A DNA stretch of 64,000 bases. Source: Candidatus Nomurabacteria bacterium (GTDB lineage: Bacteria > Patescibacteriota > Minisyncoccia > Phycocordibacterales > UBA918). The stretch is from assembly GCA_020632155.1 (NCBI GenBank), contig JACKGE010000001.1, forward strand, positions 314,285 through 378,284, written 5' to 3'. The position numbers and the translations under genes are program-made. This document shows, one piece after another, positions 36,168 through 38,464 of this stretch. Below the pieces are notes generated by a model. The model was not told the origin of the DNA and ran no database searches. It saw only the letters and a program-made list of their open reading frames with translations. Numbering within the stretch: the stretch's first letter is position 1; the number at the start of each line of letters is the position of its first letter.

Positions 36168-36421
36168 AGCATTTATGCAAATGATCTGTGGCTTTTTCTG
36201 TACACTCGTCGAATATTCATAACGAACTTCCCATCGGAAAGACCGTTCGAACTCCTTGTCCACATTTGACATACTTTTGATGTCGTGTTATTTATACGCG
36301 CGGATGGTTCTTAAAAAAGTCTTTCGTTTAGGCCATTTTTCAATGAATGAAAGAAATTTGGTTCTCGTGCGTCCTAAGGGGTAGGCGGGTTCCAATTTCA
36401 CTTTGCGACAAGCGAGGATTA

Positions 36422-36646
36422 ATGCAGAAGCAAACCAAACACAACACTTGGGTGCCGGACGTTTCTTTCGACAATCGGGTTTCGAAGAAGCGTTCCTGGC
36501 CTTGGCTCGAGCTCGTTCTGGTGGCAGCGATCGGTTTGACCGTAGTGTGGCCGCACCTGAAAGCGCAAGCTACGCAGGGTGATCGAGAACAGGAGAAGGT
36601 AATCGAACACCTCGAGAAAGCCAGTCCTACACTGGACCAAGGATAG
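36422..36646 (+). CDS. 75-aa single-TM protein, first gene of the GC-rich cassette. GAGG SD; own terminators at 36653-36720
   Basis: MQKQTKHNTWVPDVSFDNRVSKKRSWPWLELVLVAAIGLTVVWPHLKAQ... ~57% GC. Two hairpin terminators follow. Confidence 0.35.
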   Translation: MQKQTKHNTWVPDVSFDNRVSKKRSWPWLELVLVAAIGLTVVWPHLKAQATQGDREQEKVIEHLEKASPTLDQG

Positions 36647-36788
36647 GGCATGTCGGGCGAGTGAATAACTCGCCCCTCACAACGTAGGGCCGCCCTTGAG
36701 TTTCGGGCGGTTCTTTTGTATCTTGTTGTAAGAAGTGTTCAAGTACAGCGTCTCAGAGTTGGGCGGATTTCAAATTTGCGAGGCAAAT

Positions 36789-37016
36789 ATGACTGCAAAC
36801 AACGGTGTCAACACCGCTGACGTTTCGGGTGAAGGCCATTCACTGGTTCCTAAGCTGGCCATTCTGGGCATTCTGGTGCTGGTCTGTGGAGCGGGCTATT
36901 ACCTGATGCCACGGGAGTCTATGACTGCAGGCGAGGCCGGCATTCAGCGGTCTATCAGCGAGCACAAGGTGAGAATGGGGTGGTTGCGTCCTTGGTATGC
37001 AGCCAACCCAGACTGA
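36789..37016 (+). CDS. 75-aa single-TM protein, second gene of the GC-rich cassette. GAGG SD; terminator at 37046-37078
   Basis: MTANNGVNTADVSGEGHSLVPKLAILGILVLVCGAGYYLMPRE... followed by CGCGAAGTCGCCC-attt-GGGCGGCTTTTTGCT. Confidence 0.35.
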   Translation: MTANNGVNTADVSGEGHSLVPKLAILGILVLVCGAGYYLMPRESMTAGEAGIQRSISEHKVRMGWLRPWYAANPD

Positions 37017-37322
37017 ATGTTCTGACTACAATAAATTGTACTGCGTCGCGAAGTCGCCCATTTGGGCGGCTTTTTGCTAGGTAAAGATTAGTGCTTACTT
37101 TGGATATAAAAAACGAAACCCCTAGAAAAATTATACGGCCATAAACAAGTCTATTTTTAGTAGACAAAGCCCTTGTGTTTTTCTATTAACCTGTTATACT
37201 TGCGCCCACGTTTCGTGCCCTCGAGGGCTTTTGTTTTGAAGGTTCCCGACGTCGGGGTCGAATCGTACTCAACCGCAACCGCGGTTGCGGTTGCACATTC
37301 CAACGTTCAAAGGGAGAGACCA

Positions 37323-38228
37323 ATGAACAACAGAACCGGTCATTCGACCGTTACCCTGCTCACCACCATCGCCAAGGGCGTCAAGTTCGTGGAACCGCAG
37401 CAGTTCGCCAAGGATTTCGACAACTCGATGACCGTCGGCGCCAGCATTTCGGTGGTGCAGATCGGCCAGATCGCCGACCCGGCGCTTACGCTGAACCTCA
37501 ACCAAGTTTCCGGCCGGGATATCGACGAGCCGACCATCCGCACTCTGTCCGGCGTCATCATCGACCCGTACAATTCGGACGTCGTCCACTTGCCGCTCTC
37601 GACCAACCTGCTGATCGGCCTTCTGACGCAGATCTCGTCGCTGTCGGGCCGCGACCTCGTCCAGGCCGCAACCAACCTCAACGACGCGTTCTACTATCTG
37701 GCAGCGACCACGTCCAGCCGCCAGGCCCACTTCGGCAAGGCCGGCTCGGTACTCGGCGATGTGCGCTGGATCGGCTTCGACAAGGACAAGGAAACCGGCG
37801 TCAAGCTCAAGGTGTCGAAGAAGCCCATCAAGGGCGGCATCGAGGTCATGACCACCGACGTCGTTTCGTTCGGCGAAACCAAGGGTATGATGATCAGGAC
37901 CGCCCGCACCGGCGTTCTCGGCATCATGTTCTCCGGCAAGGAAGCGGTAGCCATCACTGGCAACCGCGACAAGAAAGAGATCACCCTGCATCCGCTCGTG
38001 GTCTCGCGGGGTGACGATGACCGGCCCGTCTTCTCCTACGACGATAACGCGGACAGCCGCAGCATCGAGAAGACGGCCGACATCCGCACCGCACTCAGCC
38101 AGGTGGGCGAACTTCCGGAGTCGTCAATCGAGATCTTGGGGCACACGCTCCTCGATTTCCAGGCGACCGCCGGCTCCGACACGTCGGATTCGCACAACGT
38201 CCGCAAGACCGGCACCGACCGCAGGTAG
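37323..38228 (+). CDS. 302-aa beta-rich hypothetical protein of no recognised family (possibly a structural / capsid-shell-like fold), ~62% GC, strong SD
   Basis: AAAGGGAGAGaccaATG ribosome-binding site. A 24-bp palindrome CAACCGCAACCGCGGTTGCGGTTG sits at 37273-37296 upstream. Terminator AGGGCGACGGC-ttgc-CGTCGCCCT at 38248-38280. Codon usage and GC differ sharply from the flanking genome. The track ORF start (37173) is an over-extension. Confidence 0.5.
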   Translation: MNNRTGHSTVTLLTTIAKGVKFVEPQQFAKDFDNSMTVGASISVVQIGQIADPALTLNLNQVSGRDIDEPTIRTLSGVIIDPYNSDVVHLPLSTNLLIGLLTQISSLSGRDLVQAATNLNDAFYYLAATTSSRQAHFGKAGSVLGDVRWIGFDKDKETGVKLKVSKKPIKGGIEVMTTDVVSFGETKGMMIRTARTGVLGIMFSGKEAVAITGNRDKKEITLHPLVVSRGDDDRPVFSYDDNADSRSIEKTADIRTALSQVGELPESSIEILGHTLLDFQATAGSDTSDSHNVRKTGTDRR

Positions 38229-38464
38229 CGTCGGCTGGGGTGAAATGGTTAGGGCGACGGCTTGCCGTCGCCCTACACCAGAAACCTTGTGGTTTCTAGA
38301 GTTACTCACGCCTCAAGAAGTAGGCGAAGACAAGAGTGTCAATAAAAGGCACCAGTATGGAAATACACCAGCTGGTGCTATTTCTATACATGGCTGATTT
38401 TTTTAAGGCCAAGAAACCCCCGTCAGCCACAAGTGATACTAGGGTTTTTTGGTACAATGTCACT

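Follow-up and report, generated by a model that had tools for sequence, protein, structure and literature searches.

The window analysed here is a stretch of 64,000 nucleotides from a Candidatus Nomurabacteria bacterium, a metagenome-assembled genome (MAG) of the Parcubacteria within the candidate phyla radiation (CPR). Between its 5S rRNA gene and a gene for a VWA-domain membrane protein lies a variable slot with ~2.2 kb of content, which includes three open reading frames (ORFs), orfA, orfB and orfC, at the positions given in the original prediction. That prediction, made from the DNA letters, described one three-gene cassette recently acquired from a high-GC donor that uses Shine-Dalgarno (SD) sequences. 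We find that the jump in GC content stems from a single gene, orfC, which forms a monocistronic cassette of ~1.27 kb (about 37125-38395) with its own promoter and untranslated regions (UTRs). The features of the locus, in window positions, are listed below.

36019 to 36200, + strand: 5S rRNA (36054-36164; Rfam 5S, 80.9 bits) within a perfect 17-nt stem (inverted repeat, 100% complementary)
36266 to 36294, + strand: possible orfA promoter (TTGACA, 17-nt spacer, TGtTATTTA), picked out by eye and absent from the consensus-scan list
36422 to 36646, + strand: orfA, 74 aa, one hydrophobic segment (maximum KD19 1.72), GAGGA upstream
36655 to 36717, + strand: two tandem GC hairpins past orfA, the second followed by a U-run (terminator), -35.6 kcal/mol, z = -4.6
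36789 to 37016, + strand: orfB, 75 aa, one hydrophobic segment (maximum KD19 2.06), GAGG upstream
37052 to 37078, + strand: orfB terminator hairpin with U-run, -20.9 kcal/mol, z = -3.6
37125 to 37171, + strand: weakly conserved block upstream of the orfC promoter; by alignment, the approximate left end of the unit common to L007, L008 and L009
37173 to 37200, + strand: orfC promoter, by alignment, with -35 TTGTGT (37173-37178), 16-nt spacer and extended -10 TGtTATACT (37192-37200)
37206 to 37322, + strand: 5' leader of ~117 nt, from conservation and pair counts across loci
37323 to 38228, + strand: orfC, 301 aa, 32.4 kDa, pI 6.1, no Cys, no hydrophobic N-terminus
38229 to 38395, + strand: structured 3'UTR/terminator array of four hairpins, ~165 nt, -71.8 kcal/mol, z = -5.8
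38396 to 38464, + strand: native upstream region of the VWA gene, aligned with relatives; right edge of the slot
38465 to 39841, + strand: VWA-domain membrane protein, native right neighbour (Pfam VWA, 3e-22)

The GC island that had been described from the 5S rRNA to the VWA gene stands in part. It is real, with 400-nt windows of 0.59-0.63 GC over ~37.2-38.4 kb in a window that averages 0.477 (47.7% GC overall), but the level of 58-62% belongs only to orfC and its immediate flanks, and the interval of 36.34-37.2 kb has merely 0.48-0.535 GC in the same 400-nt windows. The 32 native ORFs of the window, which serve as the reference for the SD statistics and for GC at third codon positions (GC3), have a GC3 of 0.468 ± 0.059 and a maximum of 0.553. 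Against this reference orfA (GC 54%, GC3 0.63) and orfB (GC 57%, GC3 0.62) are mildly raised in GC3, at z about +2.6, and orfC (GC 62%) reaches a GC3 of 0.874 (z +6.9) with a GC1 of 0.56 (z -0.3), a GC2 of 0.42 (z +0.7) and an amino-acid composition near that of the native proteins. The GC excess of orfC is confined to synonymous third positions. Among real ORFs in the window orfC alone has a GC3 above 0.8; the others above this value are a TTG-extended version of it and its antisense shadows, which result from the high GC3.

Across 1.84 billion representatives, searched exhaustively with phmmer, orfC has only three real relatives, P0002, P0003 and P0004 (E values of 1e-26 to 2e-8), encoded on short metagenomic contigs (L007-L010). 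In all, only four 50%-identity clusters reached E <=1e-8, all on low-GC CPR-like contigs. Two other, weak phmmer matches, a PIN/TOPRIM giant protein (P0006) and a eukaryotic protocadherin (P0007), were discarded as chance (hhalign probability 2%). Word-indexed protein searches added no further relatives, no donor-like homologue was found among about 15 billion proteins, and phage, plasmid and viral collections, including INPHARED and IMG/VR, held no match to orfC. Scanning GTDB genomes for the promoter motif gave generic CPR promoters and chance matches only; promoter plus leader hairpin 1 gave chance matches only in JGI metagenomes. Motif scanning of IMG/VR gave no match. The family is very rare and so far found in Kaiserbacteria/Nomurabacteria-like Parcubacteria only. 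Its members share the composition of orfC: the three homologues have a GC3 of 0.80-0.91 with measured flanks of 39-48% GC, and their codon profile is near-identical to that of orfC (C3 0.53-0.55, A3 0.04-0.05, with a preference for TCG, CCG, GGC, CTC/CTG, AAG and CAG). Read across the family, the GC3 richness is a maintained synonymous-site trait and not a donor signature.

The promoter, leader and 3'UTR can also be aligned over all four loci, with covarying stems. Key bases of the promoter are invariant in 4/4 family loci (consensus form CTTG-N13-ACCTGnTATACTnGCGC), the promoter occurs once in the window, and transcription would start at ~37204-37208. The same motif stands ahead of unrelated genes in other CPR genomes (L013 and L016; Gracilibacteria, Peregrinibacteria), which indicates a generic strong promoter. 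Within the leader are a small GC hairpin, GCCCUCGAGGGC, with a U-run (hairpin 1, 37217-37237), a second hairpin, CCCGACGUCGGG (37245-37256), a perfect palindrome of 12+12 nt and an RBS-like purine-rich GGGAGAG (37312-37318), the last belonging to a family-wide purine-rich motif 5-9 nt ahead of the ATG. The 24-bp palindrome exists as predicted but lies at 37270-37293, not 37273-37296; it has -16.4 kcal/mol (z = -4.3), and by our own arithmetic such a palindrome is expected by chance ~0.004 times per 64 kb. It is present in two of the three homologue loci, and L007 lacks both it and the second leader hairpin. No other copies occur in the window, and a role as an operator with further sites there was set aside. 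A role of hairpin 1 and its U-run as a transcription attenuator was considered and is not claimed, the stem being weak (4 bp, -6.6 kcal/mol, z = -0.3). The leader as a whole is near shuffled stability (z = -1.6), though the extended -10 promoter and the leader hairpins are conserved.

Downstream of orfC, the four stems of the 3'UTR are a GC clamp (38250-38275), GAAACC/GGUUUC (38281-38296), CGCCU/AGGCG (38309-38326) and a long terminal hairpin (38352-38393). Across loci the 3'UTR has 26 consensus pairs, 6/26 with compensatory changes. The hairpins predicted behind orfA, orfB and orfC are all borne out against shuffles (z = -4.6, -3.6 and -7.0, respectively). The 5' and 3' hairpins of the cassette are unrelated in sequence. 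By nhmmer, the leader and 3'UTR elements are restricted to the cassettes, with none elsewhere in the window or in relatives with an empty slot, and the best Rfam match, ftsZ-DE, had 29 bits where its gathering score is 72, all other matches being far under theirs. One population variant, L004 (window 37023-38297), has all of its 7/7 single-nucleotide polymorphisms at 38236-38276, in or around the GC clamp of the 3'UTR, and the 906-nt coding sequence (CDS) is free of them; among the seven, A38257G makes a GC-clamp stem pair G-U.

The four loci differ most in what lies between these conserved ends. Every pair of proteins shares 22-33% identity, compared with 54-85% for promoter plus leader and 54-81% for the 3'UTR, and UTR identity and protein identity are uncorrelated across loci, so that how far the coding part has diverged does not simply follow from how far its own flanks have. 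The pair L008/L009 is the clearest case: promoter plus leader are 85% and the 3'UTR 81% identical, versus 24% for the protein and 50% for the CDS at the nucleotide level, and nothing aligns outside the transcription unit. We infer from these four alleles that protein-coding alleles may be replaced between strongly constrained conserved arms.

The signals ahead of the cassette ORFs differ from those of the native genes. GGAG/GAGG-type motifs precede 3/3 cassette ORFs versus 1/32 native ORFs, as had been predicted. The 3' tail of the 16S rRNA (52485-52510) reads GGAUUAAUUCCAAUU and, also as predicted, lacks CCUCC; loss of the anti-SD is known for a subgroup of Parcubacteria (PMC9297842), and the tail here agrees with it. 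A -10-like box precedes many native starts by 6-10 nt (TAnnnT examples at 1059, 15267, 16731 and 41162), and boxes so close to the starts indicate leaderless initiation; native genes thus look leaderless from their sequence.

The orfC protein (NCBI MCB9811659.1, "hypothetical protein [Candidatus Nomurabacteria bacterium]") is rich in Thr, Ser and Gly. Its N-terminus, MNNRTGHSTVTLLTTIAKG, is polar, and with a maximum KD19 of 1.32 (residue 87) the protein has no classical signal peptide or membrane segment. Searched as a single sequence and, for orfC, also as a profile, orfC and its homologues gave no match in Pfam, PHROGs, NCBIfam, PADLOC or PDB sequences. Nor did orfA and orfB have a match in the family libraries, PADLOC among them, and PADLOC also lacked a family for a 442-aa ORF of L008 described below. 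An AlphaFold model from a four-sequence alignment (pLDDT 59) suggests that an alpha/beta region at the N-terminus is followed by a long helix, by a beta-meander of nine strands (146-249) and by a disordered tail; fold searches with this weak model, including BFVD and PDB, gave no significant match. The phage, coat, shell and toxin identities that had been proposed thus find no PHROG, PADLOC, Pfam, NCBIfam, PDB or fold match, and orfC is, as far as these libraries tell, an ORFan.

The slot itself was compared among relatives ascertained through homologues of the VWA protein, with the upstream regions of five relative lineages examined. Their content is as follows.

L023: 5S, then 175 bp to VWA
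L024: 5S, then 45 bp to VWA
L025/L026: 5S, then 895 bp of other content with flat GC
L028: pilin-like gene upstream of VWA
L030: TrpR-like gene, then 40 bp to VWA

The cassette is found in 0/5 of these relatives, which also hold no GC3-rich ORF or cassette UTR element at this place. Because the slot lacks the cassette there, the segment is, as judged from these genomes, an insertion relative to them, and the proposal of a self-contained inserted segment stands. On the left the slot is bounded by the 5S unit, whose 17-nt stem arms (36019-36035 and 36184-36200) form a processing or terminator stem, the 3' arm entering a U-tract. At the right edge TGgTACAAT (38450-38458), a promoter of leaderless type, stands six nt ahead of the VWA ATG at 38465 and is kept in L023, L028 and L025. 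No terminal repeats or target duplication were seen around the insert except an A/T-rich 12-mer inverted pair, which was rejected as marking its ends, the right arm lying inside the region where the empty-site alignment of L023 resumes.

At least two cassettes lie directly upstream of a VWA orthologue. The ORF after the L009 cassette starts MRDTAPWAFLRRVYYGT, which matches how the VWA orthologues of the window and the five relative lineages begin. The L008 cassette comes after a TrpR-like gene, which shares 48% identity with its counterpart 40 bp from VWA in L030, and between this gene and the orfC homologue is a second GC3-rich ORFan. The left neighbour of the cassette therefore varies (orfB/5S, GIY-YIG or another ORFan), and the right neighbour is VWA wherever it is visible. 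The second ORFan of L008 (979-2307, - strand; 442 aa, GC3 0.79) is divergent from the orfC homologue in orientation and has its own TTGACA/TATTCT promoter, a leader with a short GC hairpin and U-run, and, at the 3' end, a GC clamp with a GAAACC...GGTTTC stem behind it; this ORFan hints at a wider class of such cassettes. Three items occupy the slot of L025 (5107-6000, equal to 1703-2596 of L026): a second, degenerate 5S-like fragment; a membrane ORF of 41 aa that has a GGGGAA motif and a terminator of its own; and ~400 nt rich in hairpins, for which Rfam gave no match and which may represent another small cassette or an RNA. A TrpR/YerC-like helix-turn-helix gene also occurs in the window at 8399-8782 (- strand), 29 kb away, and is 36% identical to the slot neighbours (L008 185-592, L030 4554-4961); that it might bind the 24-bp palindrome is pure speculation.

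The assembly of the locus is supported by other contigs. The exact orfC protein was called on five more contigs from different samples. Contig L001 (Logan, SRR12358676) matches window positions 36084-39947 at 100%, covering 5S, orfA, orfB, orfC and VWA; L002 (ENA) matches 37087-39663 at 100%; and L027, from a second NCBI MAG, matches 38270-42841 on the right side at 99.8%. With the junctions reproduced in independent assemblies, the metagenome mis-join once offered as an alternative is excluded. Short contigs tend to end at the two perfect palindromes, where L005 has an inverted duplication; breakage of contigs at palindromes explains the fragmentation, and no chimera is needed. Within the population the orfC CDS is nearly invariant. 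One contig, L006 (window 37075-37937), has a premature stop (S182*, at 37867) and T193A, and may be a dispensable-gene variant or a sequencing error.

The orfA and orfB genes form small membrane-protein cassettes that are unrelated to the orfC cassette. Each encodes a protein with a single hydrophobic segment, as predicted, and orfA is a separate small cassette. No homologue of orfA was seen in the loci at hand or in family libraries, a deep protein search for it not having been made, and neither orfA nor orfB has a counterpart at the other loci with an orfC homologue. The orfC unit alone recurs, and the description of a three-gene cassette does not hold. In a strain variant, L031 (window 36416-37520), orfA and the 5' part of orfC are 100% identical to the window, and all divergence falls in one patch that spans no more than orfB and its terminator, with eight substitutions (five nonsynonymous), a deletion of 3 bp and one hairpin arm remodelled. 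By its sequence the patch resembles a short tract of recombination or a case of local diversification.

In the wider locus, the 23S rRNA (32291-35961) precedes the 5S, and the 16S rRNA (51047-52506) is detached from 23S-5S, 15 kb downstream on the same strand. A tRNA-Ile(GAT) at 53785-53859 lies ~1.3 kb past the 16S, not in a 16S-23S spacer. The 23S match spans 3671 nt versus a 2925-nt model, i.e. ~750 nt of insertions, with no inside ORF of at least 150 aa; relatives L024, L025 and L030 have LAGLIDADG homing-endonuclease ORFs within their 23S. On the right, VWA is the first gene of a conserved VWA-FtsW-GT4-Bac_transf-epimerase-FolD-SecD cluster, of which VWA-FtsW-GT4-Bac_transf are envelope genes. 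The VWA protein has 833 homologues; a 100%-identical entry is named Ca. Kaiserbacteria, and the other top ones are 56-70% identical. Its true start is most likely the conserved ATG at 38465 rather than the GTG at 38336 of the longest ORF. Starts at GTG 38336 or ATG 38357, the latter used in one public gene call, cross the cassette 3'UTR.

We give about even credence to the view that orfC is an accessory cassette, rare, hypervariable and probably expressed at a high level, in a hotspot next to envelope genes, its product being an abundant, hypervariable accessory protein tied to the envelope cluster. The promoter, hairpin-capped ends and GC-rich body would yield an abundant, long-lived mRNA and thereby much protein. 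Protein alleles would be swapped or replaced by recombination between the conserved UTR arms, making the product hypervariable, and the product would probably meet a partner that changes fast, for instance the surface of a host cell, a phage or the cell's own envelope. The GC3 excess could be upheld by selection at the mRNA level, by recombination-associated GC-biased conversion, or by both; recombining bacterial genes do have raised GC3 (PMC4450053).

Several points weigh against this view. The high expression is read from signal strength alone. A protein with no signal peptide or membrane segment is a poor fit to a classical surface protein, and the S182* allele of L006 suggests that cells can, at least in some cases, do without orfC. 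The family is known from four distinct alleles, three of them on contigs of <4 kb. The whole leader is no more stable than shuffled sequence, hairpin 1 is weak, and the RBS-like motif is unable to pair with the 16S tail of this organism. Since the AlphaFold model is poor, the absence of a fold match is weak evidence. For bacteria, the effects of GC-biased gene conversion (gBGC) have been described as differences in mean GC3 between classes (PMC4450053), and in our judgement an excess of 0.40 at a single gene would be unusually large for gBGC.

A bolder and more doubtful extension is that these loci represent an undescribed class of "recoded" hypervariable expression cassettes in Parcubacteria without an anti-SD, in which conserved, structured UTR arms (promoter, leader hairpins, 3' hairpin array) surround an ORF that is swapped or diversified as a whole and kept at a GC3 of ~0.8-0.9, and units are stacked at a fixed place before VWA. 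Other explanations compete with the accessory-cassette view. The original explanation, a recent transfer from a high-GC, SD-using donor whose composition and SD motifs persist as unameliorated signatures, is in our view very unlikely, even though the codon profile of orfC resembles those of genomes with 60-65% GC, SD-like motifs occur in a genome whose 16S lacks an anti-SD, and the closest relatives have no cassette at the syntenic site (L023, 175 bp; L024, 45 bp; L030, 40 bp). Reportedly, from the codon-position correlations of Muto and Osawa (1987), a donor with a GC3 of ~0.87 should raise GC1 and GC2 as well, but both are native-like here. Moreover, homologues at 22-33% identity share the GC3 within low-GC CPR contexts, the UTRs and the CPR-type promoter are common to all members, and the searches turned up no homologue in a high-GC genome, a phage or a plasmid. 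An assembly chimera, in which a high-GC fragment was mis-joined into a CPR contig, would account for the abrupt compositional step and for the many short contigs that stop at palindromes, but its probability is close to nil given L001 and L002 at 100% and L027 at 99.8% over their respective spans, and L009 independently joins a homologous cassette to a VWA orthologue.

Mobility is harder to dismiss, though we still consider it unlikely that orfC is a non-autonomous, site-preferring mobile cassette (e.g. a late-gene unit of a phage or integrative element) whose ends are recombinase or transposase sites, with the enzyme encoded elsewhere and a separate GC-rich gene pool as source. Homology has sharp limits, ~95 nt ahead of the start of transcription and at the final hairpin; both ends carry hairpins, and the unit is present or absent at one slot with differing left neighbours (5S/orfB, GIY-YIG or another GC-rich ORFan). 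L008 has a second GC3-rich ORFan of like UTR design, and the L025 slot contains a duplicated 5S fragment. However, neither terminal repeats, inverted or direct, nor a target duplication were found at the insert, no integrase or transposase lies nearby, the 5' and 3' hairpins are mutually unrelated, viral, phage and plasmid collections gave no match, and the conserved block is exactly one transcription unit, as selection on expression predicts. An old, vertically inherited gene of the VWA locus, mostly lost and evolving fast under positive selection, with functional UTRs, GC3 set by translational or mRNA selection and no allele exchange, is quite unlikely. The same position relative to VWA in distant lineages, compensatory changes in UTR stems and the family-wide codon bias all agree with it. 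It would need many independent losses, however, given 0/5 VWA-ascertained relatives with the cassette; the divergence of UTRs and proteins is uncorrelated, the pair with the closest UTRs (85%, 81%) having, at 24%, a protein identity among the lowest; and the preference for TCG and CCG resembles general GC pressure, not tRNA-driven optimisation.

The locus has wider interest. Abundant and surface proteins, and the rules of gene expression, are largely unknown for the uncultured, mostly episymbiotic CPR bacteria. Here a synonymous-only excess kept over deep divergence provides a counter-example to the equation of a GC island with recent foreign DNA, and structured UTRs with a canonical RBS-like motif despite an anti-SD-less 16S make a test case for translation of leadered mRNAs. 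As a candidate hypervariable, highly expressed protein encoded beside envelope genes, orfC is of the type sought as a determinant of contact with hosts or phages. Should the decoupling of UTR and CDS hold in more genomes, it would be a new organisation of bacterial allele exchange. If the recoded-cassette class is true, an abundant episymbiont protein would be diversified by cassette exchange, and the SD-like motif would point to non-standard initiation of leadered mRNAs in a mostly leaderless organism.

Compared with known systems, the orfC cassette differs from a structural module of a prophage or satellite in having no match in PHROG, INPHARED or IMG/VR or, with a weak model, among BFVD or PDB folds, and in having rRNA and envelope genes as neighbours. 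Unlike an IS200/IS605-type or PATE-like element, it has unrelated end hairpins and no transposase domain in orfC, a trans-acting transposase not having been searched for. It resembles integron cassettes in that a structured, palindromic and conserved element comes after a single ORF, in orphan ORFs with a composition unlike the host, and in the stacking of units in one slot (orfA, orfB and orfC; two GC-rich ORFans in L008). It differs from them in having a promoter for each unit and 3' hairpins that, by sequence reading, do not have the attC R''/L''-L'/R' layout (RYYYAAC...GTTRRRY), and no IntI/attI was seen among the window ORFs of at least 150 aa, not all of which are annotated. As in islets of horizontal gene transfer at rRNA or tRNA hotspots, there is polymorphism in a fixed slot by a stable RNA gene, atypical GC and translation signals, and no homologues; the anomaly of orfC is, however, GC3-only and kept across deeply diverged alleles, no integrase or att repeats are present, and the cassette expression signals are conserved among hosts. 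With gBGC (Lassalle et al., 2015) the cassette shares third-position enrichment, non-optimal G/C-ending codons and a locus with signs of allele exchange (PMC4450053), but +0.40 GC3 is far beyond the expected class differences (PMC4450053), the cassette UTRs have ~50% GC, and recombination is inferred here. As the orfC cassette does not pass as a surface-layer (S-layer), integron, hairpin-ended transposon, prophage or defence system, it is filed under none of them.

S-layer genes nevertheless resemble it in expression design. With only 32 kDa and no signal peptide or hydrophobic N-terminus, orfC is unlike S-layer proteins; it has no SLH, CWB2 or other wall-binding domain (Pfam, NCBIfam), and its locus has no silent second copy or inversion system. 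The likeness is limited to that design. At sites of S-layer genes, promoters are efficient, the 5'UTR has structure that is credited with stabilising the mRNA, and codon usage is biased (PMC3666127). As at such sites (e.g. Lactobacillus slpA), orfC has an apparently efficient promoter, a long 5'UTR with conserved hairpins, codon bias and a strong terminator, together with a Thr/Ser/Gly-rich, Cys-free protein, very high variability between strains or species, and adjoining envelope genes.

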